From assembly GCA_017652705.1 (NCBI GenBank), contig JAGCAM010000079.1, positions 11,475-75,474 on the forward strand: a stretch of DNA of 64,000 bases, read 5' to 3'. A program made the translations under genes and the position numbers. Of this stretch, positions 7,992 to 33,721 are shown in pieces; the stretch's first letter is position 1, and each line of letters starts with the position of its first letter. A model generated the notes under the pieces. The model had not been told where the DNA came from. It made no database searches and saw only the letters and a program-made list of their open reading frames with translations. This stretch comes from Kiritimatiellia bacterium. GTDB lineage: Bacteria; Verrucomicrobiota; Kiritimatiellia; RFP12; UBA1067.

Positions 7992-9929
7992 TCACTTCCC
8001 GGCTGCGGCCAATTCCAGCGCCTGGCGGTAGACGCGGATTTTCGCGACGATCTCGGGCCGCGTCCAATTGATTACGAACGACGGATAGTACTGCCCGGTC
8101 TTGGGCGGGAATATACGGTTGAATTCGGCAAGCGCGGCGTCAAGCCCGGCGGCCGCTTTTTCAAGATCGGCGATTGCCGCCGCAACCTTGCCGACGTCGC
8201 CGCTGGCGAGATATTCCGCCAGCGATTTCAGGCCGCGCTGGTGAAAGGTCATCGCGTCGAGATCGAGCGCCTCGAAACGCGCGCGCCCCGCCTCGGCTGC
8301 CGCCAGCCCGGCGCTCGCGGTTCCCGCGGCGGACGTCGCGAGCGCGTCTGCCGCTTCACGCATCCTCTTCGCGCCGAACCCGAAGTTGCCCACCAGTTCC
8401 GCGCCGCTCTCGCCGCCGCGTTCGGGCATGAACCGGTAGTCGAAATATATATCGTAGGGCAGATTGCAGAACTGCCACGCGCGCAGATACGCCGCGGCGT
8501 TCCCGCTCAGATAATCACGCCACGGGCCGGGATTCTCCGGATCGACCGCAGCGGCGAGACGGGCGGTCAGAGAATCCGGTGTGTGCCCGCCTTCCCACGC
8601 CAGCAGAGACATGGCGAGCATGTTCCAGTCCACCCCCTGCAGTTCGCCGCCTACATGCAGCGACATCCAGCAGGTGATGCCCCCGTCGATGTAGGCGTCG
8701 GCGTCGCCGATCAGCACCTGCGGCAGATAGGGGGTGTGCCCCCGGAAAAGTATCTTGTCGTTGTAGTACTCGAAAGTGTGCGCGTCGTCCACGCCTTCGA
8801 AGCGGCGCTGGTATTCCTTGAGCGCGCGGTGGTAGGTGCGGTTGTGTGCGCACGACGGATCGTTCAGCGCGTGGGCGTAGCAGCGCTCGCGCGGCGCGAA
8901 CAGAAGAAAGCACTCCTTCGCTGGCGCGAACAACTTCGACGGAAACATCGTGTCGTGATAGGCGATGACCGGCACGCGCAGCGACGAGCCGAGCTCCCGC
9001 ACCGCCTCCGCCTCGATATTCATCACCAGCGCGCTCTGGTCGGTGCCGGTGAAAGCGCGGCAGCGCGAACACATGCACCAGCCGCCGCCGGGCAAATCGT
9101 CAGCCCAGGCGTGTATCGCGTGGACCCCCCCGCCGACTGCCGGCTCGAGACGCTTCTTGAAATTGCGCTTCACTATGTCGCGCGTCTTCGGATTCGTCGC
9201 GCAGAAGTTCGAGTCCTTCATCCGCTTGCCGTTGAAATCCTCGGGCTGGAACATGCGGAAGAGTTCGGGTTCTTTGTCGAAAAGTTCTCGCGGCAGACAC
9301 GAGCTCATGCCGTGGCCGCCGGCCTCGGCCCTGAACCCGAGTTTTTTGAGCAGATCCATGCGCTCCGGAACGATGCGCGCGGAGTGCGCGCAGATCGAGT
9401 TGAACTTGAGCTTGGCGAGAAACGCGTACCACTCCTCGACCGTGTACGACACGCAGGCGCTCGACGCGAAAAGCCCGCGTCGTTCAAAACGCGGATTCAC
9501 CGTCTTCACCTCGTCTTTCACCGGCTTCATCCGCCGCGGCACCAGCTCCCCCTTTTCGCCCGGCGCGATAAAGGAGAAGCCGAGTTCTTCGGCGATGGTG
9601 TAGACGCCGTTGAGAACGCCTTTGCCGCACGCAGCGGCGACCGTCACACCGTCTTTGCAGGCACTCTTGACGAACCCGTCGTGGCGCACCGAGGAGACGT
9701 CGCATTGGCGCGGCGCCCCGAGCGACACGGATTCGCCTGCGCCGGCCGCCGTCCGCACCGACGCCTTGACCCCGGCGCGCCCGAGCAGCCGCGCGAGTTC
9801 GCCCGCGGCGTAGTTGGTGAGTTCGCCGCCGGTGGCGGTTATTTCGACCTTTTCAAGCGAGACGGCGTCAAAGGCAGACACCGCCCCCGCCGACAGGGCG
9901 GCGGCAAGGGCGACTGTGATTCTGTTCAT
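7992..9929 (-). CDS. secreted DUF4838-family protein (putative glycoside hydrolase)
   Basis: 645 aa with a signal peptide MNRITVALAAALSAGAVSA. It has WCMCSRC (CxCxxC) and the FNSIC/ATNP blocks shared with the other copies in this window. Confidence 0.8.
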   Translation of the reverse strand: MNRITVALAAALSAGAVSAFDAVSLEKVEITATGGELTNYAAGELARLLGRAGVKASVRTAAGAGESVSLGAPRQCDVSSVRHDGFVKSACKDGVTVAAACGKGVLNGVYTIAEELGFSFIAPGEKGELVPRRMKPVKDEVKTVNPRFERRGLFASSACVSYTVEEWYAFLAKLKFNSICAHSARIVPERMDLLKKLGFRAEAGGHGMSSCLPRELFDKEPELFRMFQPEDFNGKRMKDSNFCATNPKTRDIVKRNFKKRLEPAVGGGVHAIHAWADDLPGGGWCMCSRCRAFTGTDQSALVMNIEAEAVRELGSSLRVPVIAYHDTMFPSKLFAPAKECFLLFAPRERCYAHALNDPSCAHNRTYHRALKEYQRRFEGVDDAHTFEYYNDKILFRGHTPYLPQVLIGDADAYIDGGITCWMSLHVGGELQGVDWNMLAMSLLAWEGGHTPDSLTARLAAAVDPENPGPWRDYLSGNAAAYLRAWQFCNLPYDIYFDYRFMPERGGESGAELVGNFGFGAKRMREAADALATSAAGTASAGLAAAEAGRARFEALDLDAMTFHQRGLKSLAEYLASGDVGKVAAAIADLEKAAAGLDAALAEFNRIFPPKTGQYYPSFVINWTRPEIVAKIRVYRQALELAAAGK

Positions 9930-9951
9930 GTCTTATCTCCCTCAAACTGGT

Positions 9952-10575
9952 TCAGCGGCCGGAAACCCAGCCCGCGATGTCGGTCTCCGAAGCATCGGTG
10001 AGGTTTTTCGGGGTCTCGAAAGTCGCCCCCGGCGCCGACGGTTTCAGGTAATCCAGAGTTTTCCCGGCGCCGCTGCCGCCGCTCGTGAAGAACGGCACGA
10101 TTTTCTTTCCCTTCAAGTCGTGGGCCTCGAGAAAGGTGTTGACGACTGTCGGCGCGACGTACCACCATATCGGAAAACCGAGATAGACGACGTCGTAATC
10201 TGCGATGTCGGCGATTCTGGTTTTGACGGCCGGCCGCGACTTCTTGTCGTTCATCTCCACCGAAGATCGGCTCTGTTTGTTGTGCCAGTCGAGGTCTTCC
10301 CTGTTGTAGGGCTTCTCGGGGGTGATTTCGACAAGTCTGCCCCCGGTCGCTTTGGCGACGAGCGCGGCTTTTGCCTTGGTGGTGCCGGTGGCGGAAAAAT
10401 AGGCGACGAGTGTTTTCATTTTCTTTCCTTTCACTTCTTTGCCGGCGGCCGGAGCGCCTCCCGCCGCCGGCGGTTCTTTTTCAGCCCCGTTTACGTCGTT
10501 CCCGCCTGAACCGCCGCAGCCTGCCAGCGCCGCGGCCGACACCGCGAAAACAAATTCTTTTCTGCTTAGTTTCAT
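9952..10575 (-). CDS. flavodoxin-family lipoprotein
   Basis: 207 aa with lipobox ALAGCGG, a Gly/Ala/Pro linker, then KTLVAYFSATGTTK and YLGFPIWW. An SD GGAGGAG lies upstream. Confidence 0.8.
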   Translation of the reverse strand: MKLSRKEFVFAVSAAALAGCGGSGGNDVNGAEKEPPAAGGAPAAGKEVKGKKMKTLVAYFSATGTTKAKAALVAKATGGRLVEITPEKPYNREDLDWHNKQSRSSVEMNDKKSRPAVKTRIADIADYDVVYLGFPIWWYVAPTVVNTFLEAHDLKGKKIVPFFTSGGSGAGKTLDYLKPSAPGATFETPKNLTDASETDIAGWVSGR

Positions 10576-10604
10576 CTGACTTCTCCTCCGGTTTTACTGA
10601 GTGT

Positions 10605-10613
10605 ATTATATCA
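10605..10613 (-). promoter_or_regulatory. extended -10 box TGATATAAT for the flavodoxin gene (leader about 20 nt, with SD)
   Basis: The reverse complement of attatatca is TGATATAAT. Confidence 0.55.
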
Positions 10614-11004
10614 TTGTCTGCGGCCTGAAATCAACACCAGTCGGCTTTCGGCAAGGAAAAACCCGAGGATCACCGTCCAGTACACGGTAAGCCCGGTATA
10701 GGCGCAGACCTCGTCCCTCCGCTCCCCGACGAGGACGACGAGAAGCGGGTTCAGGACCTTGCGGATCGGCTCGATGAAGCCCCTGAACGCCTTCATCGCC
10801 TCCGCCCATGCCGAGCGCAAACAGCATCGTGACGCGCGAAGCCAGATGCTGCCAGAACGCGGGCTCCGGTCCGCGCAGGATATCAAGGCAGAAAAGCCGC
10901 CCCGCCGGATAGCTGTGGGGCCGGGGAAAGACCGACGGAACCACGCCCTGCCCCATTCCAGAAATCCGGCCCCCGGCCATGTCGCGGCTCCGGGCTTTCG
11001 ACAT
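10606..11004 (-). pseudogene. frameshifted remnant of a membrane acyltransferase (acyltransferase_3/DUF1624-like)
   Basis: Two overlapping frames are involved. One carries RLFCLDILRG..MLFALGMGG (the R-x3-LD-x-LRG N-terminal signature). The other carries hydrophobic LNPLLVVLVG...YWTVILGFFL. No intact ORF exists. Confidence 0.35.
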
Positions 11005-11081
11005 TTACCCGGTAGTTTTCTGCATGGTATTCCTTTTCGCTTGCAAACATTCCAGGTGTCATGCCGGTTTCCCGGAGCTGT

Positions 11082-11834
11082 CTATGAACGTTTCTTCCCG
11101 CCGACGGCGGAAAGAAGCATTGCGGTCAGCCAGCCGGGCAGCGGGCGGTCGTGGTTCAGCATTTTTTCGATGTAATCCTTGAAATCGAACCGCAGCTCCC
11201 GGAAATCCAGCTCGCCGGCCCGGTCGTCGTAGATGCAGTATGTCGTCACCATGTCGTTGCGCGGGTAGCCGACCGAACCGAGATTCACCAGATACCGCCA
11301 CCCGTCGCGGATTTTGAACGATCGCGGCTTCCAGCGCTTGATCACCCCTTTGGGGCTGCGCAGAAAAATCTCTGCGTGGTGGAGATGCCCGACGAACAGC
11401 AGTCTTTCAGGGGTGGCGTTGAACGAAAGGGATGCATCGTAGAGATCCATGATGTAGTTAAAATCGGCGGGGCTGGTGAAGTCGCCGTGCGCACAGGCGA
11501 AATCTCCGTTGGACCAGCTGACCGGGCGTTTGCGCAGCCAGGCGACATCCGGGGCAGAAAGGAGCTTACGGTCGAGGCGGTCGATGTCGTAGTTGGGGTT
11601 GACGCGCATCTCCACGGTCTGGCTCCGGGCCACGCAAACTTCGTCGTGGTTGCCGAGCAGCGCCACCGAAGCGCACTTGCGCAGGGCCGCCACGCACGCC
11701 GGAGCGTCATAGCCGTAACCGGTCGCATCGCCGCAGAAAATCCACTTGTCCACGCCACGCGCGGATCCGTCGGCAAGCACGGTTTCAAGCGCCCGGAAAT
11801 TTCCGTGAACGTCTGAAATGACGCCGTATTTCAC
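11082..11834 (-). CDS. metallophosphoesterase (calcineurin-like, YfcE/MJ0936-type)
   Basis: 250 aa with DVHGN, GDATGYG, GNHD and GHLH motifs. It has a GTG start in a GTGA overlap with the clpC stop. Confidence 0.85.
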   Translation of the reverse strand: MKYGVISDVHGNFRALETVLADGSARGVDKWIFCGDATGYGYDAPACVAALRKCASVALLGNHDEVCVARSQTVEMRVNPNYDIDRLDRKLLSAPDVAWLRKRPVSWSNGDFACAHGDFTSPADFNYIMDLYDASLSFNATPERLLFVGHLHHAEIFLRSPKGVIKRWKPRSFKIRDGWRYLVNLGSVGYPRNDMVTTYCIYDDRAGELDFRELRFDFKDYIEKMLNHDRPLPGWLTAMLLSAVGGKKRS

Positions 11835-15183: not shown

Positions 15184-15191
15184 GGATGTGT

Positions 15192-15200
15192 ATTATATCA
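15192..15200 (-). promoter_or_regulatory. extended -10 box TGATATAAT, 8 nt from the ATG at 15183 (leaderless candidate)
   Basis: The reverse complement of attatatca is TGATATAAT. Confidence 0.55.
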
Positions 15201-15235
15201 AATATTGCATCCGCTTGCCTTCCCGCGCCGCCACC

Positions 15236-16732: not shown

Positions 16733-16739
16733 GCCGCAG

Positions 16740-16748
16740 ATTATACCA
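16740..16748 (-). promoter_or_regulatory. extended -10 box TGGTATAAT, 7 nt from the dnaB ATG (leaderless candidate)
   Basis: The reverse complement of attatacca is TGGTATAAT. Confidence 0.55.
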
Positions 16749-19130: not shown

Positions 19131-22100
19131 TCATCGGCCTGCGATTTTAATCGTGCCCGGCTTCAGACCGGGTGCGGTTACAGTCAGCTCAGGGGCGTCG
19201 CCGGTGCCCCGGTAGCGCCTCACCGCCACCACCGCTTTGCCGAACCACAGCGAGTGCCCTTTCAGACTCTTGAAAGACACCATCGACCGGGGATCGCCGT
19301 TGCCTACCGCCGCGATTTCACCCGGGCCTTTCAACAAGACGTCGAACTTCGCGTCCGAGACCGGCGAACGGTTGCCTTTCGAGTCCACCGCGTCAATCTG
19401 CACGAAAACCAGATCGGAGCCTTCCGCCGAATACGGATCGCGCGTGAGCCTGATCGCCTTCGGCGCACCTGCCGTTTTCATCTTCGCTTCGCCGATTTTC
19501 TCCCCGCCGCGGTACGCCACAGCTTTCAGCTCACCAGGCCTGTACGGCACGTCGAACCAACGCAGTCTGTACTTCGCGCACACTTCATAATACCTGTTGG
19601 TGAGCGCAGGGTTGCGTTCCACCACCCCCTTGCGGCGGCGGCCGAGCGATCTGCCGTTGAGAAAAAGTTCCGCCTCGTCGCCTGATGTGTAGACGTAGAC
19701 AGGCACTTTGGTCCCTTTATGATCATTCCAGTTCCAGTGCGGAAGAATGTGCACAGTCTCCGCCTTTTTGTTCCAGTGCGAGCGGTAGAGATGCCAGCGG
19801 TCTTTTGGAATGGCGCAGATGTCGGCGGCGCCGAAGTAGGAACTGCGCGAAGTGTCGGCGACGGTGAAGCTGCGGCCGGCCGCCTTGACATAGTGGCTGC
19901 CAAACTCGCTGGCGCCGAGGAACCAGAGTGTGTAGGGGGTGGGCTCGCCAATGTAGTCGATGCCCGACCAGACAAATTCGCCGCAAACGTAGCGGTCGCG
20001 TTCCATCCGGTCGAATTCGACGTCGGCGATGTCGCCCCAGGTCGCGGCGATCTGGTCGTAGCCGTCGACTTTCCAGTTTTTGACGTCGGCGCGGAACCAT
20101 TCTCCGTGCTCGGTGTTGTTGGTGTTGGACCACCCCTCGCGTTCTTCGTTGCCGGCGAACGGAACCCGGTAGAAGCCGTAGTCGGAGAACGCGCTCGCGG
20201 ATTCCGAATAGAACAGCGGCATCGCCGGGTTGCGCGCGTGCATGTGGCGGTAGCTGCCGCCGTAGTTCCAGCCGTTGAGGTCGAGTCCGTCGAGATCGCC
20301 TTTTTCGACGGCCTTTACGTAGCAGCAGCCAATGCCGACCGGACGGGTGGAGTCTTCGGAGAGAACCGCCTTGCGGAAACGGTCGCAGCGTTCGCGGGAG
20401 GTGCCCTGGGAATATTCCTCGCAGTTGAAATAGATTTCATTGCCGAGCGACCAGGTGAACACGCAGGGATGGTTGCGGTCGCGGCGGACGAACGCCTTAA
20501 GATTGCGCTCGACGTATTCTTCGAGATTCTCCCCGGGGAGCCGCCCGGCGGTGCCGTCCCATTTGTCGAAACATTCATCCCAGACTAGGATGCCAAGTTC
20601 GTCGCAGAGATCGAGCAACTGCGGGGCGGGGCAGTTGTGCGAGGTGCGTACGGCGTTCACGCCCATGTCGCGCATGCAGAGAAGCTGGCGCTTCGCGGCG
20701 TCGCGGTCGAACGCCATGCCGAGCGGCCCCAGATCGGAATGGAGGTTGACGCCGTGAATCTGCAGGCGGCGTCCGTTGAGAAACAGTCCGTTGGTGGTTA
20801 CGGAAACGGAGCGCACCCCGTAGCGGAACTTTTCACCGGCGACGGCGTATTCGTAGAGATAAGGGTCGTCCACGTCCCAGAGACGTGGTTTGAGAATTTT
20901 GAACGAGGCGGACTTTGGACCCGAAAGTGTGCGCCAGCTGACGTTGACGGTCGCCTCGGCGGCGGATATTTTCGGAGTGGTGATCGCCACCGAGCCGGGG
21001 ATGGCGTGACCGTCGCCGCGGGTCACGAGGCGAACGCTGCGGTAAATGCCGCCGCCGGGGTACCAGCGCGATTTGTGGTCGGTCGTGTCGGCGGAGACTT
21101 CAAGACTGTTTTCACCGTTGACGACAAGAGCGGACACATCGAGGATGAAGGATGCGTAGCCGTAATCCCACCCGCCGGCGTCTTTGCCGTTGACCTTGAC
21201 TTTCGGGCGGGCCATCACTCCGTCGAATTCAAGGTAGACCCGCTCGCCCGGCTTGCCGGACTTGCGCCAGACGAAGCTGCGTCGGTAGTCGCCTTTGCCG
21301 CACCACGACAGCTTGCCGGTGGCGTAGTCGTTGGTGTGGTTGAACGGCCCCGCTATCGCCCAATCATGGGGAACCCGCACCTTTGACCAAGCGGAGGAGC
21401 CGCCGCGGCGGAATTCCCAGGCGTCACCGTCGAGAGAGATGGATCGGAACGCCGAGTCGACGTTTTCCCTGGCGAAAGCGGAGAGGTCGGGTTCACCCCA
21501 CAGCGGAACGTAATTGCGGTCTCCGAGAGTTACCGCGAAGGAGGATATCTCCTCGAAACCGAGGAGGCGGTAGTATTCCACGTCGGCGGCGACGACGTCC
21601 TTCGCCTGGCGGAAAAGTTTCACGGGAGATGTCCAGTGGGAGTACAGGGAATTGTCGAACCAGTATTCGAGAACGCGAGAACCGGCGGAGCCGAACTTTT
21701 CAATCAGGGCTTTAAGGGGCTTGGTCTCGCCGTTGTTCTGGTCGGCGAGGGGACGGCCGAGATCGCGTTTGATGGGGGCGTATTCAAGGAACACGCCTTT
21801 GACCGGTTTCACTTTCTCCGGCGGGTTGATGGCGTCGGCGTAGGCAAGGTAGCAGAGTTCGGCGTCGGGTATGAACTTGCGCAATTCGGTCACGATGGCG
21901 TTGGCGAAAATCAGCTGCTGGTCGCTGGCGGAGAATCCGCGGCATTTTTCGCATTTGCACACGCCGCCGTGCACGTCGTCAAGCCACAGACAGTAGCGGC
22001 GGTTGCCGCCGTAGAGGGCCTTGGCGAGTTCGACCGCGCGTTTCCCCGCAATGTTCATGGCTTCGGGGTTGGAGAAGCAGAAGTTCTTGTCCCTGCAGCG

Positions 22101-24380
22101 GGCGCCCTTCTCGTCCATGCGGAAATATTCGGGGTGAACGTCGAAAAGGTTGCGCGGCAGCAGCCAGCTGGCGGCGTGGATTTCATAGCCGATGTCGATG
22201 CCGAGGGCTTTGGCGCGGTCGATGAGGGCGCGGTAGCCGGGCTCTTTCAGTCTGGCGAGTGTTTTATCGAGCGCGACTTCGGCCTGGCCGCCGCCGCCGG
22301 GATGGATGGAAAGATTGTGGAGACCGAGATTCACCGCGCGGTCCACCCAGCGGTCGGAGAGTTCGTCGGTGCCGATTACGAGGGATGTTTTAAGCGCCCC
22401 GGCCGGCGGAGCGGCCGGCTTTTTTTCACGGAACCAGACCTGCATGTCGTTGCCGGGCTGGCGGTGGTCCCACGCGAAGTACGGTATCAGTTTCAGCCCG
22501 TTGGAAGCTTTGAGCGCGGGGAAGGTCTTGTCGCCGATCACGATGGTGTCGTCGGTGAAAGTGGCGTCTTCGGGAAGAACGGCGTCGTAGGCCGCGCCGC
22601 CGTTGTCGCAGCCTTCGGCGCAGTAGAGCATGGGGCCGCGTTCGACGGCGAGACGGCCGAGGTCGTCGACGACGGCGCGGTGGGCGCGGATACGCTTGAC
22701 CGGCATGGGGAAATTGACTTCGACTTTGTCGCCGGCCTTCCATTTTCTGTCGATGTCGATGTAGCCGTCTTTGCCCGGTGCGGGGTCAAGAGCGGCGCCG
22801 TTCACCGAGAGAGTGATTTCCTTGACGCTTGCGGGCACGGTCTGGGTGTACAGGTCGCCGGGCACCGGTTCACCTTTCGCCCAGCCGGGAACGCGGAGTT
22901 TTAGCGTGAACCGCTTTTCGGCGGCCGGGCTGACGGCCAGCGTTGCGCGGCCGTTCCACGGATATCCCGTGTCGCATTTGAACTTGACCCCTTCCACCTC
23001 GGCTTCGCCCTGCATGACGAGGTTCCAGAATATGTTCGCGCCGTCGGTCGCCCACGCGAAGGACGGTATCTGGGGGATGAAGCGGACGTCATTCACCGGG
23101 CAGCAGCTGCAGCCGAACCACTTCGAACGTCTGTAACCTCCTTTGCAGGCGAGCGGGTTGGGGTAGAAGTACTCGTCGCCGGTGAGTGACACGCCGGAGA
23201 GGAATCCGTTGTAGATGACCCGCTCGAGTATATCGACGTATTTGGATTCGCCGGAAAAGCGGAACATACGTTCGTTCCACAGGGCGTTGGCGATCGCGGC
23301 GCAGGTTTCCAGATAGGTCACGCGGTAGTCGTTGGGCAGCAGATAGTCGCGCTCGAACGCCTCGCCGCGGGGGGTTCCGCCGACGCCGCCGGTGAGGTGC
23401 AGCTTGCGACCAGAAACGTTGAGCCAGATGGCGGAAATCGCGTCGAGGTACGCCTTGTCGCCGGTGAGGGCGGCGACGTCGGCGACACCGCAGTACAGGT
23501 AGCCGGCGCGCACAGCGTGGCCGACCGCCTCGCGCTGGAGGACGACGGGCATGTGATCCTGGATGCCCGCGCCCGGGGCGACGATGGGGTCGACCGGTTC
23601 ACCGCCGGGGCCGACCGGCCGCCCGTCTTCGAGAGACCTGCCGCGGCCGCGCATTTCAATGAAGTGGCGCGCGAGGTTGAGATAACGCTTCCTGCCGGTC
23701 ACCCGGTAGAGCTTGGCGAGGGCGAGCTCGATTTCCTCATGGCCGGGCGCGTCTTTGAGCTGGGTCGGGTCGGGCCCGAACACGCGGCAGAAAAGATCGG
23801 CGGATTTTACGGCGACGTCGAGGAAATTGCGCTTGCCGGTGGCCCGGAACCACGCGCAGGCGGCTTCGATCATGTGCCCGTTGTTGTAAAGTTCGTGGCT
23901 GGAGCCGATGTTGGACCAGCGAACGGGGCCCATCATGCCGCTGCTGCCGCCGCCTTTGCTGAAGTGCCAGTGGCCGAGCGTTCTGGCGGTGTAGAGGTAG
24001 CCGTCTAATTCCTGCGCTTTGGCGAACTGACCGATAAGCCAGTCGCAGTATTTTTCAAGTTCGGGGTCGGGGTGGTTGGCGAGCACGTAGGCCGCCCCTT
24101 CCACCACCTTGAACACGTCGGAATCGTCGAAGGGAATTCCGCCGAACTTGCCGGCGCGGGCGGCGGCGTTGGTGAAGTTGGCGATGCGCGGCGTCTCGTT
24201 GCATTTGTCGAAACAGTTTTTGAGGGTGGAAAGACGGTTCGTCTCCAGCCGGTCGTACCAGAAGCCGCCGGTGACTCTGACCTTGGTCATGTCGGCGGAG
24301 CGGATCGGGTAGTCGTTGGCGGCGGCGGCCGCAGCGGCGGCAACGAACGCTGCGACGGCGACAGAGAGTTTCTTTTTCAT
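19131..24380 (-). CDS. secreted triple-fusion glycosidase: GH127 (DUF1680) + DUF4838-like core + GH2
   Basis: 1749 aa with a signal peptide.
- GH127 motifs: HELYNNGHMIEAACAW, GHEEIELALAKLYRVTG, CSCCPVN.
- A Pro/Ala linker follows.
- The DUF4838-like block contains VCKCEKC.
- GH2 part: WSKVRVPHDWAIAGPFN, NHPCVFTWSLGNEI, GEFVWSGIDYIGEP. Confidence 0.85.
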   Translation of the reverse strand: MKKKLSVAVAAFVAAAAAAAANDYPIRSADMTKVRVTGGFWYDRLETNRLSTLKNCFDKCNETPRIANFTNAAARAGKFGGIPFDDSDVFKVVEGAAYVLANHPDPELEKYCDWLIGQFAKAQELDGYLYTARTLGHWHFSKGGGSSGMMGPVRWSNIGSSHELYNNGHMIEAACAWFRATGKRNFLDVAVKSADLFCRVFGPDPTQLKDAPGHEEIELALAKLYRVTGRKRYLNLARHFIEMRGRGRSLEDGRPVGPGGEPVDPIVAPGAGIQDHMPVVLQREAVGHAVRAGYLYCGVADVAALTGDKAYLDAISAIWLNVSGRKLHLTGGVGGTPRGEAFERDYLLPNDYRVTYLETCAAIANALWNERMFRFSGESKYVDILERVIYNGFLSGVSLTGDEYFYPNPLACKGGYRRSKWFGCSCCPVNDVRFIPQIPSFAWATDGANIFWNLVMQGEAEVEGVKFKCDTGYPWNGRATLAVSPAAEKRFTLKLRVPGWAKGEPVPGDLYTQTVPASVKEITLSVNGAALDPAPGKDGYIDIDRKWKAGDKVEVNFPMPVKRIRAHRAVVDDLGRLAVERGPMLYCAEGCDNGGAAYDAVLPEDATFTDDTIVIGDKTFPALKASNGLKLIPYFAWDHRQPGNDMQVWFREKKPAAPPAGALKTSLVIGTDELSDRWVDRAVNLGLHNLSIHPGGGGQAEVALDKTLARLKEPGYRALIDRAKALGIDIGYEIHAASWLLPRNLFDVHPEYFRMDEKGARCRDKNFCFSNPEAMNIAGKRAVELAKALYGGNRRYCLWLDDVHGGVCKCEKCRGFSASDQQLIFANAIVTELRKFIPDAELCYLAYADAINPPEKVKPVKGVFLEYAPIKRDLGRPLADQNNGETKPLKALIEKFGSAGSRVLEYWFDNSLYSHWTSPVKLFRQAKDVVAADVEYYRLLGFEEISSFAVTLGDRNYVPLWGEPDLSAFARENVDSAFRSISLDGDAWEFRRGGSSAWSKVRVPHDWAIAGPFNHTNDYATGKLSWCGKGDYRRSFVWRKSGKPGERVYLEFDGVMARPKVKVNGKDAGGWDYGYASFILDVSALVVNGENSLEVSADTTDHKSRWYPGGGIYRSVRLVTRGDGHAIPGSVAITTPKISAAEATVNVSWRTLSGPKSASFKILKPRLWDVDDPYLYEYAVAGEKFRYGVRSVSVTTNGLFLNGRRLQIHGVNLHSDLGPLGMAFDRDAAKRQLLCMRDMGVNAVRTSHNCPAPQLLDLCDELGILVWDECFDKWDGTAGRLPGENLEEYVERNLKAFVRRDRNHPCVFTWSLGNEIYFNCEEYSQGTSRERCDRFRKAVLSEDSTRPVGIGCCYVKAVEKGDLDGLDLNGWNYGGSYRHMHARNPAMPLFYSESASAFSDYGFYRVPFAGNEEREGWSNTNNTEHGEWFRADVKNWKVDGYDQIAATWGDIADVEFDRMERDRYVCGEFVWSGIDYIGEPTPYTLWFLGASEFGSHYVKAAGRSFTVADTSRSSYFGAADICAIPKDRWHLYRSHWNKKAETVHILPHWNWNDHKGTKVPVYVYTSGDEAELFLNGRSLGRRRKGVVERNPALTNRYYEVCAKYRLRWFDVPYRPGELKAVAYRGGEKIGEAKMKTAGAPKAIRLTRDPYSAEGSDLVFVQIDAVDSKGNRSPVSDAKFDVLLKGPGEIAAVGNGDPRSMVSFKSLKGHSLWFGKAVVAVRRYRGTGDAPELTVTAPGLKPGTIKIAGR

Positions 24381-24410
24381 TTCAGCGGTCTCCTTTTAAG
24401 GGTGAAGCTT

Positions 24411-24902
24411 TCACAGATGTTTGATGTTGATTTTGCCTGTGGCGAGTCCCGGGGCCGATGCCGTCAGGGTGGCGGGGCCTTTGCCGGTGCGCCGAAGGAT
24501 TACCAGGGCCTTGCCGTGGAAAAGACGGTTGCCGGCGACGTCCTTGACCGAGTCGTAATCGCGTGGGTCGCCGTTGCCTACCGCTTCTATGACGGCGTCG
24601 CCGCGGACCGCGAAACCGACTCGGTCGCCGGCGTCGGGAACGCGCGTACCGGCTGCGTCCGCTTTCGCGGCGGTTTTCACGCTGGCCACGCCGATCTTCC
24701 TGCCCCTGAGATAGCGGACCGCCCTGAGTTCGCCCGGTTCCCACCGCACGTCAAACCAGCGCAAACGGTAGCGGCCCATAATCTTGTAATACGGGTTGTC
24801 GCGGCCTTTCCCGTTGAACTTGGCGACGTCGCCGCAGTCGCTGTGCAGCGGATAGTCGAGGCGGAGCTTCCGTTTCATTGGCCTTATTTTGTTTTGTCGC
24901 AC
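24411..24902 (-). pseudogene. stand-alone remnant of a GH2 C-terminal region (no catalytic domain)
   Basis: 155-163 aa. RYRLRWFDVRWEPGELRAV and AVGNGDPRDYDSVKDVAGNRLFHGKALVILRR align by eye with the last ~150 aa of the adjacent 1749-aa protein, with an internal gap. Confidence 0.6.
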
Positions 24903-24912
24903 TGAATGGCGG

Positions 24913-27669
24913 TCATTGCTCGACGAATTTCAGTACGCCGAAGGCGTTGAGATCGCTGTTGAAATTGCCGAACCTGTTGTAAAGCCGCGAAAGTTCCCAC
25001 ACCGAACCGGGGGTGCGCTTCGACTTGTCTTTGAGCCAGGCGTCGGCGATTCTCAGCCGCGCGATGTTGCCGTTCCAGTGGATGCCGCCCTGCGTGGTCG
25101 GTATTTTCGCGTCGGCGAAGAAACCGAGGTCGCTGTACGGTATGTAGATTTCGACCGACCAGGAGTCTTTGTTGATTTTCGCCCCGCTCTTCAGCCCCTT
25201 CGGTTCCCACTTCTTGGTCTGAACCCGCAACTGGTTGACGGCGTCGATCCAGAGTTTGAAATAGACGCCTTCAAGCTCGCCGGTGGGGTCGACGAAAATT
25301 TCAAGACAGTCGTTGCCCCACCAGTCGCCGGCCGGGTGCGAAGTCTGCAGGCGGTCGGGGGTCTTCTCCATGCAGGTGATGCCGAACACCACGCCTTGCG
25401 AAGTCCATACCGCCTGCACGTAAGTCGGATATTTCGCCACGGTGTTGGTGCGGCTGCCGCTGCCGTCGATACCCGCGAGCGCGCAGGAGAGCGGCTCGGC
25501 GAGCTTCCAGCACGGGTCGGAGAGGTCGCCGTCGATTTTCGGAAGTTCGGCGGCCTTGCGCATGTGCAGGTCGGGGAAGGCCTTGTTGTTGGCGTACTCC
25601 CAGCTTTCCCTGAAAAACCGCTCGAAGGGTTTGGCGTAGTAGGCGAGACGGTTCGAGGCGGCCGCATCGTCGGCGAGAGCCCTGAACGACTCTTTGATTA
25701 TGCGTTCCATCTCCTCCACCTCGGCGCGCGGGTAGCTGATGCCGAAAACGTTTTTGCTGGTGACGCTCGGCCGCTTCCACTGCCGTGCCCACCCTTTCTC
25801 CTGCATGTCGATAAGTTTGCGCATCGGCGCGGCGGCCTTGCCGAACATCCGACTGGCGAATTCGTCGTAGACGTCTTTCGCCTCGAAGCCGGGGTTCCAC
25901 ATCGCCCGCACCCAGACGTAGGCGGAGAGCCCGAGCCGGTCGACCGGATACCCCCCGTTCAGGAAAGATCCGCAGATCACGCCCTTCATCCTGCGGTAGA
26001 ATTCAACAGCGGTGCCGCCGAAAACGTAAGGGGCGCAAGTCCGGTCGGCCGGCCAGCAGATGTAGTGCCAGTTCTGCACGGGGTTGCCGGTCGCCTTCGC
26101 CCATTGGCGCATGAGCTCCTCCTCGTGTCTGCGGGCTGATTCCTGGGCGAGCAGCGCGAGGCCCGGCATGGTGCACAGAAACGCGTCCACGTTGCCTTCG
26201 GCCGTGAGATCGAGACCTTTGGGCACGTCGCAGGTGTTGATGTAGGGAAGTATGGAAATGCGCCAGTCGGGATATTTCCGCTTCATCCATTTGGCGAGTT
26301 CCTTGGTGAAATACCCCCAGATTATCGGCGAAGCGTCGCCCGTGGGCGCGGCTGACTTGTCCACGAGTTTTTTGCAGAAATCGCAGTGGCAGACGACGGC
26401 GGCGTCGTACTGCGAAACGGTTACGGTTTTGCGCTGCACGTCGACGGGGTCGCCCATAAAGCCGCGGCGTTTGCCCTCGACCGTCAGGTTGATGTGCTCC
26501 TTGTAGGTCTGCAGCGTGCGGGGGTTGCCGTAACAGAGCATGGCGGTGCGGGCGCGTTCGCCGTTTTCGGACAGGGCGAAGATTTCCGGTCGCCCCGTCC
26601 AGCGGCTCGGCTTGTAACCGAGATTGGGGTCGACGTGCCAGTAGCTCGGGGTGTGGACCCGGTGCGATGACTGGTGGGCGTCGCCGAATTTCCAGCCGCG
26701 GTGACCCGCTGCGAATTCGGTGCGGAATTCATAGACCGGTTTGTCCGACCAGTTGAACCGTGGCAGGGCGAGACCTTCCGTTTTGATAACGAGTTCGCCG
26801 ATCTTGCGGTCGGGGTAGTACTGGCGTACGCCGAGTATCCGTTCGGCGAAGTCGTAGACGGCGTAGCCGGAGGCGGTCGCATGCGCGCCGATGAGGAAAA
26901 CGTCCCCTCCTTTGGTGAGACAGCGGAAGGCGTGTGCGCCGACGCCCCACCGGGTGTCGGGGGTGCCGGGGCGGGTGACGCCGGCTTCGCGGGCGGCGAG
27001 GGTGTCGCCGATGTAGATCGCGCCGCCGCCGGTGTAGGCGGTGTTGGTGCCGAGATGGAGAACCGGCGGCTTGGCGCCGGTCATCTTTTCGATTATTTCA
27101 GCGAGCCACACCGCTTCGCCGCGCGCTTCGGCCGCCACGATCGGCATGCGGGCGACGCCGTCGGCGACGACCACGACCGGTTCCCCGCGAGGGGCCGAGA
27201 ACGCGGTGAGCGGGGTCAGGTCTTTGGCGCGCGGATTGCCGGGCGCGAGCTGCGCTCTGGATCCGTCCTCCGCGGTGACGAAACTCCCTTTCCGTTCCGC
27301 GGCGGCGGCCGAAGTCTTGGTGAAGTAGTTGGTGGCGAGCGCGGTACGCGACGTCCGGCGGTACGCCTCGAAGAGAACTGAATACTCACCGGCCGGCAGA
27401 TCTTCGACATGCAGCGAAAGCGCATTGCGCCCGACCCGCAAGGGAACCGACTGCGTGCGGAGCATCCTGCCGGACGCGTCGCGCAGCGTCATTTTCACGC
27501 TGTCGGCGGTGCAGACCGGAACCTTTGCCTCGAAGGCGACGTAGACGTCGTCCTTGCCGAGCGTCTGCCGGTCGCCCGAGGCGCCGGTAAATCCGACGGC
27601 CGGCGCCGCGGCGGCGGCGGCGGAAAGGATTGCCGCGGCGGCGAAAAGAACCTGTGCTGTCTTTGTCAT
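24913..27669 (-). CDS. secreted DUF4838-family protein with a C-terminal CBM9-like domain
   Basis: 918 aa with a signal peptide. It has VCHCDFC, WHYICWP and PKIDGDLSDPCWK. It is a close paralog of the C-terminal 760 aa of the 30401-33721 product. Confidence 0.85.
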   Translation of the reverse strand: MTKTAQVLFAAAAILSAAAAAAPAVGFTGASGDRQTLGKDDVYVAFEAKVPVCTADSVKMTLRDASGRMLRTQSVPLRVGRNALSLHVEDLPAGEYSVLFEAYRRTSRTALATNYFTKTSAAAAERKGSFVTAEDGSRAQLAPGNPRAKDLTPLTAFSAPRGEPVVVVADGVARMPIVAAEARGEAVWLAEIIEKMTGAKPPVLHLGTNTAYTGGGAIYIGDTLAAREAGVTRPGTPDTRWGVGAHAFRCLTKGGDVFLIGAHATASGYAVYDFAERILGVRQYYPDRKIGELVIKTEGLALPRFNWSDKPVYEFRTEFAAGHRGWKFGDAHQSSHRVHTPSYWHVDPNLGYKPSRWTGRPEIFALSENGERARTAMLCYGNPRTLQTYKEHINLTVEGKRRGFMGDPVDVQRKTVTVSQYDAAVVCHCDFCKKLVDKSAAPTGDASPIIWGYFTKELAKWMKRKYPDWRISILPYINTCDVPKGLDLTAEGNVDAFLCTMPGLALLAQESARRHEEELMRQWAKATGNPVQNWHYICWPADRTCAPYVFGGTAVEFYRRMKGVICGSFLNGGYPVDRLGLSAYVWVRAMWNPGFEAKDVYDEFASRMFGKAAAPMRKLIDMQEKGWARQWKRPSVTSKNVFGISYPRAEVEEMERIIKESFRALADDAAASNRLAYYAKPFERFFRESWEYANNKAFPDLHMRKAAELPKIDGDLSDPCWKLAEPLSCALAGIDGSGSRTNTVAKYPTYVQAVWTSQGVVFGITCMEKTPDRLQTSHPAGDWWGNDCLEIFVDPTGELEGVYFKLWIDAVNQLRVQTKKWEPKGLKSGAKINKDSWSVEIYIPYSDLGFFADAKIPTTQGGIHWNGNIARLRIADAWLKDKSKRTPGSVWELSRLYNRFGNFNSDLNAFGVLKFVEQ

Positions 27670-27683
27670 TTTTCCGCGCCATT

Positions 27684-30397: not shown

Positions 30398-30400
30398 GCC

Positions 30401-33400
30401 TCAGTTCTCGCGGAAGATGAACTTTGAAAAAGCTCCCGGATCGCTGTTGTAGCCGTTGCCGCGCGTATGCAGGCGGGACATCTCGGTGGTGTGCGGGGTT
30501 CGCTTGTTGAGCGGACGGATCGTCTTGTCGCCGCGGCGGAGGCGGATGAAGTTCCCCGTCCAGGACATGCCCCCTGAAGTCGTCGGGTGCACCGCGTCTT
30601 TGTAGAGCGCGATCATCGGCTTGTACGGCACGTAAAGTTCGATGCTCCACGACTTCTCGTTCTTCGCGATCGCGCAGCGGACGCCTTCCGGCCCCTGGGC
30701 CTTCTTGAAGCCGTCGTACCACTCGAACTTGCCGCTCGCGTTGATAATCACGCGGCCGAAAGCGCCGTAGTCGCCGCCGAGGTCGATCAGCGCTTCGACG
30801 CAGTCGTTGACCCAGTAGTTGCCGGTGGGGCCGTCGTTGCAGAGGTTCGCCATGTCGCTTTCGCGGCAGTCCATGCCGAACGTGACTGCGGTCGGCGTCC
30901 ACACCGCGCGTATCGACGTGCCCTCTTTCGGCGTCGTGCCCTCCTTGCGCGCGCCGGTGAACTCCTGCGCTTCGGCCAGCTTCCAGCAAGCGTCGTCGAG
31001 CTTGCCGTCGATCACGGGGTCCTGCGACACTTTCTGCATCATGAGCGGCGCAAAGGCGCTGCCGGCGGCGTATTCGGCCGATTCCTTGAAAAACTGCGTG
31101 AAGCCGCCTTTGTAGTAGGCGATGCGCTTCATGAGCAGCTCGTCGCCGGCGCAGAGCTGCTCTGCCTCGGCGAAGAGCCCCTCCATCCTCAGAACTTCCG
31201 CCCGCGGATAGGAAATCGTGTAGATGTTCCGGTTGTTGACGCGGGAGACCTTCCACTGCCGCTCCCAGCCTGTCTCCTGCAGGCGGACGATCTCGCGCAG
31301 CTGTTTCGCCGCGGGCCCGAACATGCGGTCGGCGAAGGTGTCGTAGACGGAGTCGATGTTCAGCTCGGGGTTCCACAGCAGGCGCATCCAGCAGTAGGCC
31401 GAAAGCACCAGCCGGTCTACCGGGTAACGACCGTTGAGAAAGCTGCCCGCTGTGATTTCGCGCGTGTCGCGGTAGTGGCGCTGGGCCGTCTTGGCGAAGA
31501 TAAACGGCGCCTGGCAGGTCTCCGCCGGCCAGCAGATGTAGTGCCAGTTCTGCACCGGCCGACCCGTCACCCGCGCCCAGTCGCGGATGAGTTGCTCCTG
31601 GAACTCCTTCACCGGCTTCTCCTTCAGCATGGCGAGACCGGGCATCGTGCAGAGAAACGCCTCGACGTTGCCCTCTTCGACGAAGTCCACCCCGTCGGGT
31701 ATGTCGGTCGTGTTGTGGTACGGCAGAATGACTATTTTCCAGCCGGGCAGTTCCTTCTTCGCCCACTTGGCGAGTTCTTTCGTGAAGTAGCCCCAGAGCA
31801 CGTTCGAAAAGCTCACGCGGCTTTCGGCGATGTTCTCCTGCGGGTGTCTGGCGAGTATCGCCTTGCAGTATTTGCAGTTGCAGAAAACGGCGATGTCCCA
31901 CTGCGAAACGGTGATGCACTTCGCCAGCGGTGCGGTGATGTCGCCGCGTGGCGAACCGCTGGCGATTTCGGCGAGGATGCGCTCCTTGTACGTTTCGAGG
32001 GTGCGGGGGTTGCCGTAGCAGAGCAGCGGCATCGTCGCCCGTTTGCCGTCGTCGGTCAGCGCGAAGATTTCCGGCCGCGTGAACATGAAGTTGAGGTTGG
32101 TGTTCCTGTTCCACGCCCCGGGCGCATGCACGTGGTGCTCTCCGCAGTGGCTGTCGCCGTTTTTCCACACCCGGCACCATTCGTTGCCTTCGTACGGCCA
32201 GAGGTCGCGCTTGGCGAAAACCGGCTTGTCGGAGTAACTGAACGCCGGCAGCGAAAGCCCGTATGTTTTCACCACAGTGCGGCCGCCGTTCTTGACGTCC
32301 CAGTATTCGCGCACGGCGAGGGCGCGCTCCGCGAAGTCGGTCGCCGCGTAATCGCACCGCGCGCCGCAAAGGTAGACCGACCCGTCTTTCACGCACACCT
32401 TGAACCCGTGCGCGTCGACGCCCCAGCGCTCGCGCTGGTAGGTGGCGAGCCCCGCGCGGCGCGTCGCCGCTACATCGCCTATGTAGATCGCCGGGGCGTT
32501 GGTGACCGGTCTGCCGCCGCACTCGCGCACGATCCTGAGCCTGGCGCCGGTCATGTCCTCGATCACCGAGGCGATGAACTGCGCGGCGAACTGCCCGTCA
32601 CGCGAATCTTCGCAGACGATGTCCATCGCCGGTATCGAGCCGAGAGCGACGGTCGCGCCGGCGCCGCCCAGCCAGCGGAAATCTTTCACCGGCGTCAGAT
32701 CGCGCGCGTTCACGTTCATCGGGGCGCGCTGCGCATGATAAACCCTGCGGCGGACGTCGTCGACGCGCACCACCGCCCCGCCGCGCTTGCCCGATTCCTC
32801 CGCGGCGGCCATGAGCGCGAAGATCTCGTCGGTTTCCTCGGAAGGGAAAGGCTTCACCCCGGTTTTGAAAAACTTGAGTATCTCCTCGAGCATCGGCGCG
32901 TAACCCTCGTATCCCCCGAGATCGACCACCCCCTTGTCGGCGGTGAACGCCTGGCCGGAGTAATTCCACATCCCGGGCCCGCGCATCATGCGCAGACCGC
33001 CGAATCTGCCGTCGCGCCATCTGACGGCCACGAAATCGTTGCTTTCGTTCGAAAAGCAGCTGACCGATTCGGCACCGACCCCCATCACCGCCACGAGCGG
33101 CTCGAAACCGTGGATGCCGTACCAGGTGAACCGCGAGTGGGTGCGCTCAAGCGGCGAGGGAGCAGCGTAGTTGACGCCGCGCACCACGCCCAGCTCCCCT
33201 TTGCGCGCCGCCTGCACCTTCGAAGTCCACCGCAGCGCGGAACAGCTGAAGAAATTGGCGTTGACCCGGCGCGCCTCGTCGAATATCCGGGTGGCGGACT
33301 GGTAGTCGCTGGCGAGGGGCTTGTCGATGAACACCCGCTTGCCGCTCGCGAAAACCTCCCGCGCCTGGGCCAGATGCTCGCGGCCGTCCTGCGTTTCAAG

Positions 33401-33721
33401 CAGCACCACGTCGCACTTCGCCAGCACGTCTTTGACGCTCGGCTCCATTTCAACGCCCATCTCCTTCATCTGCCCGATGTATTTCGGGTAGTTGTTCGTC
33501 ACCGCGGGTATCGTGCGCGAGCCGTACTTGTACGCGGCCACGACCCGGAAATCTTTGAATATCTCGCGGTCGCGCTTGACGTTGATGTGCCTGGTGAACT
33601 CGGTGGCGTGCGACGTGTCGACGCCGATGACGCCGATCTTGATTTCGCCGGCCGTCGGGGCGGCCGCGGCCGCCGCCGCCGCGAGAAGTGCGATTGAGCG
33701 AAGTGGTCTGTCCATTTTCAT
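30401..33721 (-). CDS. secreted fusion: Gfo/Idh/MocA oxidoreductase domain + DUF4838 + CBM9-like domain
   Basis: The ATG at 33721 (MKMDRPLRSIALLAAAAAAAA) has an SD GGAG; the track ORF starts at a TTG at 33757.
- Oxidoreductase part: IKIGVIGVDTSHATEF, FIDKPLA.
- DUF4838 part: FCNCKYC, WHYICWP.
- CBM9-like part: IDGKLDDACWK. Confidence 0.85.
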   Translation of the reverse strand: MKMDRPLRSIALLAAAAAAAAPTAGEIKIGVIGVDTSHATEFTRHINVKRDREIFKDFRVVAAYKYGSRTIPAVTNNYPKYIGQMKEMGVEMEPSVKDVLAKCDVVLLETQDGREHLAQAREVFASGKRVFIDKPLASDYQSATRIFDEARRVNANFFSCSALRWTSKVQAARKGELGVVRGVNYAAPSPLERTHSRFTWYGIHGFEPLVAVMGVGAESVSCFSNESNDFVAVRWRDGRFGGLRMMRGPGMWNYSGQAFTADKGVVDLGGYEGYAPMLEEILKFFKTGVKPFPSEETDEIFALMAAAEESGKRGGAVVRVDDVRRRVYHAQRAPMNVNARDLTPVKDFRWLGGAGATVALGSIPAMDIVCEDSRDGQFAAQFIASVIEDMTGARLRIVRECGGRPVTNAPAIYIGDVAATRRAGLATYQRERWGVDAHGFKVCVKDGSVYLCGARCDYAATDFAERALAVREYWDVKNGGRTVVKTYGLSLPAFSYSDKPVFAKRDLWPYEGNEWCRVWKNGDSHCGEHHVHAPGAWNRNTNLNFMFTRPEIFALTDDGKRATMPLLCYGNPRTLETYKERILAEIASGSPRGDITAPLAKCITVSQWDIAVFCNCKYCKAILARHPQENIAESRVSFSNVLWGYFTKELAKWAKKELPGWKIVILPYHNTTDIPDGVDFVEEGNVEAFLCTMPGLAMLKEKPVKEFQEQLIRDWARVTGRPVQNWHYICWPAETCQAPFIFAKTAQRHYRDTREITAGSFLNGRYPVDRLVLSAYCWMRLLWNPELNIDSVYDTFADRMFGPAAKQLREIVRLQETGWERQWKVSRVNNRNIYTISYPRAEVLRMEGLFAEAEQLCAGDELLMKRIAYYKGGFTQFFKESAEYAAGSAFAPLMMQKVSQDPVIDGKLDDACWKLAEAQEFTGARKEGTTPKEGTSIRAVWTPTAVTFGMDCRESDMANLCNDGPTGNYWVNDCVEALIDLGGDYGAFGRVIINASGKFEWYDGFKKAQGPEGVRCAIAKNEKSWSIELYVPYKPMIALYKDAVHPTTSGGMSWTGNFIRLRRGDKTIRPLNKRTPHTTEMSRLHTRGNGYNSDPGAFSKFIFREN

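Follow-up and report, generated by a model that had tools for sequence, protein, structure and literature searches.

Four proteins encoded in the window, which is the whole 64,000-nucleotide stretch of Kiritimatiellia DNA analysed here, contain a DUF4838 domain and share the short cysteine motif CxCxxC. This raises the question whether the cluster binds a metal, forms a disulfide knot or takes part in catalysis. The proteins, named W1 to W4, and the DUF4838 module of W2 are encoded as follows:

7992..9929, minus strand, W1: exported DUF4838 protein of 645 aa, subfamily A (Pfam match)
19131..24380, minus strand, W2: fusion of GH127, DUF4838 and GH2, 1749 aa (Pfam matches)
21486..22418, minus strand, DUF4838 module of W2: aa 655-965, complete minimal (β/α)8 barrel, subfamily C (AF2 model)
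24913..27669, minus strand, W3: exported DUF4838 protein of 918 aa, subfamily B; its C-terminus weakly resembles CBM9 (Pfam matches)
30401..33721, minus strand, W4: N-terminal GFO/IDH/MocA domain and DUF4838 of subfamily B, 1106 aa (Pfam matches)

Four DUF4838 proteins and their shared cysteines

All four proteins exceeded the gathering cutoff of the Pfam HMM PF16126 (26.6 bits), W1 with 36.6, W2 with 54.7, W3 with 84.6 and W4 with 90.1 bits. The 325 positions of the profile were covered nearly end to end by W3 and W4 and partially by W1 (positions 16-227) and W2 (55-224); none of W1-W4 was matched by an NCBIfam model. Among the fusion partners named in the sequence-only reading, GH127 and GH2 in W2 and the GFO/IDH/MocA domain in W4 were recovered, whereas the CBM9-like end of W3 remained weak and below the cutoff (E 0.009). 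The C-terminal region of W4 could be aligned with this end of W3. An assembly chimera was ruled out for W2, as the exact 1749-aa product is present on three contigs from two different assemblies; the exact protein is recorded in independent ENA and Logan assemblies. Proteins from Kiritimatiellae MAGs show 100% identity to W1 and to W3; the one matching W1 carries the annotation 'DUF4838 domain-containing protein'. Hydrophobic, Ala-rich leaders of Sec-like appearance start all four proteins, as judged by inspection of the sequence.

In the AF2 model of W1 (pLDDT 94.5), an N-terminal α/β domain is followed by a (β/α)8 barrel and, at the C-terminus, by a helical bundle. The model of the W2 module reached a pLDDT of 95.9, and most homologues of this module stand alone, with lengths of 305-320 aa.

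The motif had been described as occurring at the equivalent position in the four copies (WCMCSRC, VCKCEKC, VCHCDFC and FCNCKYC, in the order W1 to W4) within otherwise variable surroundings. Both statements were borne out: the four motifs fall into identical MAFFT columns, and the identity to W1 amounts to 36, 25 and 20% for W2, W3 and W4. Across the 37 main ORFs of the window, 18,892 residues in total, the pattern C.C..C has exactly four matches. A chance origin was ruled out, with four observed matches, all in aligned columns, against 0.13 expected from a Cys frequency of 1.9%. The fourth ligand that the earlier reading had sought, His or Cys, is present as a Cys rather than a His, and it does not vary among the four copies. 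The pattern C-x(40-46)-CxCxxC aligns column by column in all copies, with the upstream Cys in the context (F/L)CxxNP:

9201..9203, minus strand, fourth cluster Cys of W1, C243, in NFCATNP (invariant column in the four-copy alignment)
9060..9077, minus strand, CxCxxC of W1, aa 285-290 (C285, C287, C290), in the β4-α4 loop (alignment, AF2)
22077..22079, minus strand, fourth cluster Cys of W2, C768, in NFCFSNP (alignment; placed before α3 by AF2)
21942..21959, minus strand, CxCxxC of W2, aa 808-813 (C808, C810, C813)
26533..26535, minus strand, fourth cluster Cys of W3, C379, in MLCYGNP (alignment)
26374..26391, minus strand, CxCxxC of W3, aa 427-432 (C427, C429, C432)
32018..32020, minus strand, fourth cluster Cys of W4, C568, in LLCYGNP (alignment)
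31865..31882, minus strand, CxCxxC of W4, aa 614-619 (C614, C616, C619)

Structural setting and characterised relatives

The suggested location near the barrel mouth agrees with the two AF2 models, which place the cluster at the C-terminal side of the barrel, its catalytic face, adjoining the presumed acid/base Asp. In W1, C243 lies four residues ahead of helix α3 (247-267); in the W2 module, C114 of the module numbering precedes the helix 118-134 by the same distance. Strand β4 (271-275 in W1, 141-145 in the module) is followed by an Asp-Asp pair (D277/D278 and D147/D148, respectively) and then by the three cysteines of the motif (C285/287/290 and C154/156/159). CxCxxC is situated in the β4-α4 loop, 5-7 residues past the invariant Asp (7 in W1, 6 in W2). 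The Asp residues are encoded at these positions:

9096..9101, minus strand, D277-D278 of W1, a pair directly past β4, with D278 as the family-invariant Asp
21975..21980, minus strand, D801-D802 of W2, an Asp-Asp pair directly past β4
26404..26406, minus strand, D422 of W3, the invariant Asp, single and preceded by Tyr
31895..31897, minus strand, D609 of W4, the invariant Asp

The invariant Asp (D278 in W1) is presumed to act as acid/base, and D278 would correspond in position to D309 of GH185, going by the description in PMC10570127. The family can no longer be described as lacking an assigned activity: DUF4838 forms the catalytic domain in GH163 and GH185, known from the endo-β-N-acetylglucosaminidase BT1035 (GH163) and the 6-sulfo-GlcNAcase Sp_0475 (GH185) (PMC10570127). 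Annotators should not treat W1-W4 as activity-less, with two characterised glycosidase families in the superfamily. Nor is the motif a new observation, as the cluster has already been published for GH163, GH185, GH42 and GH20 (PMC11776370 section 12).

W1-W4 were compared with BT1035 and Sp_0475, with which they share the Pfam domain PF16126, by published description. GH163 enzymes have a conserved Cys upstream of α3 and CxCxxC downstream of β4 (PMC11776370); W1-W4 carry exactly this pattern, and W3 and W4 likewise bear a C-terminal module of carbohydrate-binding type. GH185 has CxCxxC without the upstream Cys (PMC11776370), and GH185 cluster 3 lacks a signal peptide and is cytoplasmic (PMC10570127), whereas W1-W4 have both the upstream Cys and a Sec-like leader. 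W1 and W2 differ from both families in their Asp-Asp pair after β4, in place of a single Asp, and in their partial Pfam match. For GH163 and GH185, PMC10570127 and PMC11776370 describe neither the GH127 and GH2 partners of W2 nor the GFO/IDH/MocA partner of W4.

For a profile built from the β3-α4 region of 30 DUF4838 sequences, the five best PDB matches were GH42 β-galactosidases (3tts with E 0.0017, 1kwg, 5e9a, 5dfa and 4oif), all of them marginal (E 0.0017-0.18). The four DUF4838 cysteines are in register with the GH42 cluster, e.g. C106, C150, C152 and C155 of 1kwg, and in the profile alignment the invariant Asp falls 1-2 residues before the GH42 acid/base Glu. Common to both are the spacing C-x(~40-44)-CxCxxC and the placement of one Cys before α3 and of CxCxxC after β4, beside the acid/base; in both, the site is found in some family members and missing in others. 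The likeness ends there: sequence similarity between GH42 and W1-W4 is negligible outside the cluster region, which alone aligns, within the marginal E range given, and W1-W4 have no GH42 Pfam match. GH42 enzymes also differ as retaining members of clan GH-A with Glu/Glu catalysis and a trimeric three-domain architecture. A PDB sequence search with W1 and W3 returned no relevant match. The same four-Cys cluster is known from GH42, where Zn was found in 5/11 solved structures (PMC11776370) and the Cys4-Zn site raises thermostability (PMC8573354). Earlier work cited in PMC8573354 assigns the zinc no role in the GH42 catalytic cycle.

A subset of GH20 enzymes has a three-Cys version with Zn seen in crystals (PMC11776370); these subgroups, represented by TrdeGH20 (9fyl) and Niako3494 (8bal), differ from W1-W4 in having three cysteines, not four. 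The three-Cys enzymes were pale pink in solution, a colour that survived EDTA, and a Cys-less GH20 homologue showed comparable activity (PMC11776370). GH20 enzymes carry the signature H-x-G-G-D-E, which Sp_0475 lacks entirely (PMC10570127).

Whole-protein Foldseek matches of W1 to GH84 O-GlcNAcases span the N-terminal domain, the barrel and the helical bundle; a GH84 Pfam match was found in none of W1-W4. The catalytic pair of GH84 is an adjacent Asp-Asp, which the Asp-Asp after β4 in W1 and W2 appears to resemble. A Cys cluster is not reported for GH84 in PMC10570127 and PMC11776370.

The finding is real but ordinary: the cluster is already published and matches the zinc-binding brace of related enzymes, a recognised and probably zinc-binding stabilising element common to GH42 and some GH20 enzymes. 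The present analysis adds the fourth invariant Cys in all four copies and the pattern of concerted loss, which marks the site as one dispensable unit.

Conservation and joint loss across the family

With 15,098 profile matches among representatives at 50% identity, the superfamily is very large. Conservation was followed in 483 homologous domains, namely 363 aligned DUF4838 domains and 120 relatives of the W2 module; the complete set of four cysteines is found in almost all of them. All four cysteines are present in 343 of the 363 domains, a set compiled before the W2 relatives were added. CxCxxC was found in 119 of 120 subfamily A homologues (the relatives of W1), and CxCxxC together with the upstream Cys in all 120 subfamily C homologues (the relatives of the W2 module).

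Invariance of the cluster does not extend to the wider family, in which several clades have jointly replaced most or all of the four cysteines. Three or four cysteines were exchanged together in at least four separate lineages, which now read DSSA, N-D-D/S-T, SCSS and NVIG/NLDS. Within the 363 domains, the upstream Cys alone is missing in two sequences, and retention of the upstream Cys after loss of the whole CxCxxC was seen in none. As the four cysteines were lost in concert, the site is regarded as one dispensable unit, and as whole clades live without it, the cluster is not essential. The invariant Asp persists in the Cys-less clades, as do the His and Tyr in the largest one.

In 93 of the 120 relatives of the W2 module, the barrel starts no more than 12 residues from Met1, leaving no signal peptide. 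These proteins are therefore presumably cytoplasmic, and the conservation of the cluster in such signal-less relatives speaks against an obligate disulfide role.

A probable zinc brace and its alternatives

Of the two options raised earlier, a metal site or a structural knot, the metal site is the better supported, and a disulfide knot has lost ground for the exported copies. The cluster is probably a structural Zn(Cys)4 brace on a (β/α)8 barrel of GH20/GH84/GH42-like type, one that the fold can do without and that has no catalytic role. From sequence comparison, structure models and the related enzymes we infer a bound metal, its identity as zinc and a spacing of the four sulfurs within coordination distance. 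The four thiolates would hold a single structural metal ion, most likely Zn2+, and so fasten the β4-α4 loop to the beginning of α3. The metal would stabilise the barrel and, as the β4-α4 loop begins just past the invariant Asp, steady the geometry of the catalytic loop, with no part in the chemistry. Since the three-Cys GH20 proteins are pale pink (PMC11776370), the physiological metal need not be zinc. The Sec-like leaders of W1-W4 speak against a brace of this kind, disulfides being commoner than Zn-thiolate sites outside the cytoplasm.

The cysteines might instead form two structural disulfides, e.g. C287-C290 and C243-C285 in W1, that brace the same loop with no metal. This is unlikely, even though all four proteins bear Sec-type signal peptides (by inspection) and an even number of cysteines that is lost jointly suits a disulfide unit no less than a metal site. 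Disulfides within a CxC are strained and seldom found, and the cluster is fully conserved in the 93 homologues without signal peptide. A rubrerythrin encoded by the organism points to an anaerobic lifestyle and hence to a weakly oxidising envelope. The cluster is moreover reported for cytoplasmic GH185 and GH42, where crystals contain Zn, not disulfides (PMC8573354, PMC11776370).

We consider it improbable that the site holds a metal other than zinc or a redox-active one (Fe as in rubredoxin, Co or Mn), or that it is an oxidation- or metal-sensitive switch that moves the acid/base loop and regulates activity. A switch that sets the catalytic loop in the exported enzymes of an anaerobe is conceivable because the cluster begins 5-7 residues past the presumed acid/base Asp, and the EDTA-resistant pink of three-Cys GH20 enzymes (PMC11776370) could be read in the same sense. 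Crystallography of these pink enzymes pointed to Zn, however, and the Cys-less homologue was comparably active (PMC11776370); the GH42 zinc lacks a catalytic-cycle role in the work cited in PMC8573354, and the Cys-less DUF4838 clades keep the Asp, the largest also His and Tyr. Weak profile matches to [2Fe-2S] ferredoxins (E 0.3-0.6) were at chance level, and Fe-S cluster binding, of which they were the sole hint, was ruled out.

The GH127 family uses a Cys/Zn active site. A directly catalytic or substrate-binding role, with a Cys nucleophile as in GH127 or a catalytic metal, is very improbable despite the GH127 domain adjacent in W2 and the position of the cluster on the catalytic face of the barrel: at least four lineages swap the cysteines for Ser, Asp, Asn, Ala or Thr and keep the invariant Asp, GH185 mutagenesis assigns catalysis to D309, Q174, H227 and Y436 and implicates no Cys (PMC10570127), and, according to PMC8573354, the corresponding site of GH42 is not catalytic. 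Retention of the Asp in Cys-less clades, and of His and Tyr in the largest, led us to reject a catalytic role of the cysteines.

Separately from the four-Cys cluster, the subfamily of W1 has an invariant Cys-His-Cys-His set (C350, H353, C360 and H384), located on the catalytic side of its barrel. There is a slim chance that it forms a second metal centre; if it binds a metal, the W1 clade could be a group of metal-dependent glycosidases with a chemistry unlike that of GH163 and GH185.

Four DUF4838 proteins with a shared cysteine cluster

Four open reading frames (ORFs) of the window carry a DUF4838 domain (PF16126) scoring above the Pfam gathering threshold and belong to the family as Pfam defines it. 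They are listed with the residue number of an invariant cysteine located upstream of their CxCxxC motif:

7992-9929, minus strand: W1, 645 aa; C243
19131-24380, minus strand: W2, 1749 aa, also containing complete GH127 and GH2 modules; C768
24913-27669, minus strand: W3, 918 aa, with a weak CBM9-like C-terminus; C379
30401-33721, minus strand: W4, 1106 aa, with an N-terminal GFO/IDH/MocA Rossmann domain; C568

W1 and W3 were 100% identical to Kiritimatiellae MAG proteins annotated as 'DUF4838 domain-containing protein', and the W2 fusion was called identically in the ENA and Logan assemblies. Among the fusion partners named in a sequence-only reading, GH127 and GH2 in W2 and the oxidoreductase domain in W4 were recovered; the CBM9-like end of W3 held up less well. 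The same reading knew of no assigned activity for DUF4838, a view that is outdated, since two characterised families, GH163 and GH185, have it as their catalytic domain (PMC10570127). BT1035 (GH163) is an endo-β-N-acetylglucosaminidase releasing LacNAc from complex N-glycans, and Sp_0475 (GH185) is a 6-sulfo-β-GlcNAcase with substrate-assisted catalysis and the key residues D309, Q174, H227 and Y436 (PMC10570127). W1-W4 are new, uncharacterised members of the established DUF4838 family.

The heptapeptides WCMCSRC (W1), VCKCEKC (W2), VCHCDFC (W3) and FCNCKYC (W4) shared identical columns in a MAFFT alignment, in agreement with the equivalent positions first proposed for them, and the variability described for their surroundings was reflected in overall identities to W1 of just 36, 25 and 20% for the other three copies. 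The pattern C.C..C was absent elsewhere in the 18,892 residues of the window's main ORFs, for which 0.13 matches are expected by chance from the cysteine content. The shared motif is real and not a chance occurrence. The fourth ligand that had been envisaged was matched in the alignment by the upstream cysteine, which is invariant in all four copies, 40-46 residues ahead of CxCxxC in the context (F/L)CxxNP.

Conservation, joint loss and cellular compartment

CxCxxC was present in 119/120 W1-like proteins, down to 37% identity, and in 120/120 proteins resembling the W2 domain; W3-like proteins kept it down to about 34% identity. The family is large, with 15,098 representatives (50%-identity level) matching the profile at E <= 1e-3. 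A first set of 363 aligned domains comprised the results of the W1 and W3 searches and of a profile search together with the four window copies. All four cysteines were found in 343 of these domains, but the cluster is not invariant across the wider family: at least four lineages show joint replacement of three or four cysteines. One Cys-less clade has D,S,S,A at the cluster positions, its nearest Cys-bearing relative being 51-53% identical, and a clade marked by 'PNLSNP…DYD' has N, D, D/S/T and T/S/N. The homologue P0114 (S,C,S,S) is nested among Cys-bearing relatives at 68% identity, and the two domains of P0288 show N,V,I,G and N,L,D,S. The upstream cysteine alone was missing from only two sequences of the 363, the state reported for GH185, and none of the 363 domains retained it after loss of all CxCxxC cysteines. 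The four cysteines behave as one unit. The Asp following strand β4 was retained in every lineage, and the His of β3 and the Tyr of β5 in nearly all domains, the largest Cys-less clade included; neither the fold nor the catalytic residues require the unit.

Oxygen donors (Asn, Asp, Asp/Ser/Thr and Thr/Ser/Asn) occupy the ligand positions in P0211, P0234, P0244, P0264, P0279 and P0300, homologues from one Cys-less DUF4838 clade outside the window. Judging from these residues, a Ca2+ or Mg2+ site might, speculatively, replace the thiolate site in this clade.

Inclusion of 120 W2-domain relatives extended the alignment to 483 domains, 480 of them with usable columns, and each of these relatives had Cys at all four positions. 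Most of them stand alone, with a length of 305-320 aa, and those that are named come from Clostridia MAGs. In 93/120 no more than 12 residues separate Met1 from the start of the barrel, too few for a signal peptide; about 20 of the 120 possess one, and the cluster is kept in all. The cysteine unit is retained in presumably cytoplasmic members as well as in exported ones, which weakens the proposal that the cysteines form two disulfides in the exported copies of the window. A rubrerythrin gene with a rubredoxin-like domain (3361-3894, minus strand) suggests an anaerobic lifestyle, which bears on the survival of thiolate metal sites in the cell envelope and also speaks against disulfides; we regard this pairing as unlikely.

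A predicted tetrathiolate metal site

AlphaFold2 models of W1 (pLDDT 94.5) and the W2 domain (pLDDT 95.9), computed from 120-sequence alignments, both showed a (β/α)8 barrel. The barrel of W1 is flanked by an N-terminal α/β domain and a C-terminal helical bundle; the W2 module is a minimal barrel. In both models CxCxxC lies in the β4-α4 loop and the lone upstream cysteine four residues ahead of helix α3. The invariant Asp lies just after β4; in W1 and W2 it belongs to an Asp-Asp pair, and in W3 and W4 it is preceded by Tyr and Trp, respectively. No solved DUF4838 structure was found; Foldseek with the whole of W1 matched GH138, GH20 (GcnA, GH20C), GH84 and GH115.

A conserved Cys upstream of α3 and a C-x-C-x-x-C downstream of β4 have been described for GH163, and the same cluster occurs in GH42, with zinc in 5/11 solved structures (PMC11776370). 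GH185 has CxCxxC without the upstream Cys, and a cluster of three cysteines, with zinc in crystals, is found in some GH20 enzymes; in all four families the (putative) acid/base is on the same loop as the cluster (PMC11776370). The window copies match the GH163 arrangement in sequence pattern and topology. They do not show the two reported hallmarks of GH185: they have the upstream Cys that GH185 lacks, and they begin with what look like signal peptides, which GH185 also lacks. The GH42 site (Cys113, Cys153, Cys155, Cys158) adjoins the acid/base Glu148, is stabilising and is not kept throughout GH42; according to earlier work cited there, its zinc takes no part in the catalytic cycle (PMC8573354). 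Both the motif and its probable significance have thus been published before for the DUF4838 family.

The PDB was searched with a profile built on 30 diverse DUF4838 sequences and covering the β3-α4 region. The five best matches were GH42 β-galactosidases (3tts, E 0.0017; 1kwg; 5e9a; 5dfa; 4oif); their E-values were marginal, but the matches agreed with one another. The GH42 cluster cysteines (C106, C150, C152 and C155 in 1kwg, counted along the printed alignment) were in register with all four DUF4838 cysteines, and the GH42 acid/base Glu fell one to two residues after the DUF4838 Asp position. The unit is positionally equivalent to the crystallographic Zn(Cys)4 site of GH42 and Zn(Cys)3 site of GH20. 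The metal site predicted from the sequence is a reasonable proposal. The cysteines likely form a structural tetrathiolate site, with zinc the most probable metal, that would anchor the β4-α4 loop, with the presumed acid/base, at the beginning of helix α3. A redox-active, non-zinc or regulatory metal site, at which the pale pink colour of GH20 enzymes hints (PMC11776370), is slightly less probable than the disulfides. A direct catalytic role of the cysteines is very improbable, as both the existence of Cys-less clades and GH185 mutagenesis (PMC10570127) contradict it. What the present analysis adds is the identity of the fourth ligand in W1-W4, together with evidence that the cysteines are lost jointly, that the cluster does not depend on the cell compartment and that it aligns in register with the zinc ligands of GH42.

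Subfamilies and neighbouring genes

At least three distinct DUF4838 subfamilies occur within the window. Subfamily A (W1) combines an Asp-Asp pair with the three-domain architecture, subfamily C (W2 module) the pair with a minimal barrel, and subfamily B (W3 and W4) a single Asp with a nearly full-length match to the Pfam profile and a CBM9-like tail:

9096-9101, minus strand: Asp-Asp pair after β4 of W1
21975-21980, minus strand: Asp-Asp pair after β4 of W2
26404-26406, minus strand: single Asp after β4 of W3
31895-31897, minus strand: single Asp after β4 of W4

The pair was found in W1, W2 and 117/120 homologues of each one's subfamily; the single Asp of W3, W4 and most other relatives follows Trp, Tyr, Ala or Asn. 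The paralogues may therefore not all share the same catalytic machinery. The catalytic pair is Asp-Asp in GH84 and Asp-Glu in GH20, and the resemblance of W1 and W2 to these pairs suggests, by analogy, a substrate-assisted hexosaminidase-type chemistry.

The closest kin of the W2 DUF4838 module are stand-alone proteins of ~310 aa (identity up to 61%), and the triple GH127-DUF4838-GH2 fusion thus appears to have taken in a minimal barrel that normally occurs on its own. A separate Cys-rich motif, 'WFGCSCCPVND', is present in the GH127 part. A small ORF between W3 and W2 (24411-24902, minus strand; 163 aa here, 155 aa as called in public assemblies) contains solely a GH2 C-terminal domain 5 (PF18565), the domain that also ends W2, and could represent either a duplicated fragment or an independent module.

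Proteins of the W1 subfamily share another group of invariant residues, C350, H353, C360 and H384 (8778-8882, minus strand; aa 350-384), accompanied by R347, E348 and R349 in the motif 'APRERCYxHALxDPxC'. This group is located in the β6-α6 loop, on the barrel's catalytic face, is missing from W2, W3 and W4, and is retained in P0114 despite loss of the first cluster. A further metal site is one possible role for it, a C350-C360 disulfide another.

The window further encodes many GFO/IDH/MocA oxidoreductases, two xylose-isomerase-like TIM barrels with TAT signals and one 3-keto-disaccharide hydrolase, a group that includes the W4 N-terminus, where the oxidoreductase domain is fused directly to the DUF4838 barrel:

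2395-3243, 33877-35232, 43876-44868, 44918-46315, 58558-59799, 59814-61373 and 61433-62482, minus strand: ORFs of this group

Such enzymes are typical of oxidative (3-keto) glycoside cleavage. Two adjacent, very large ORFs are almost unannotated (46361-51379 and 51420-55667, minus strand; 1672 and 1415 aa). The second had no Pfam match at E <= 1e-4, and the sole match of the first was an N-terminal CBM9.
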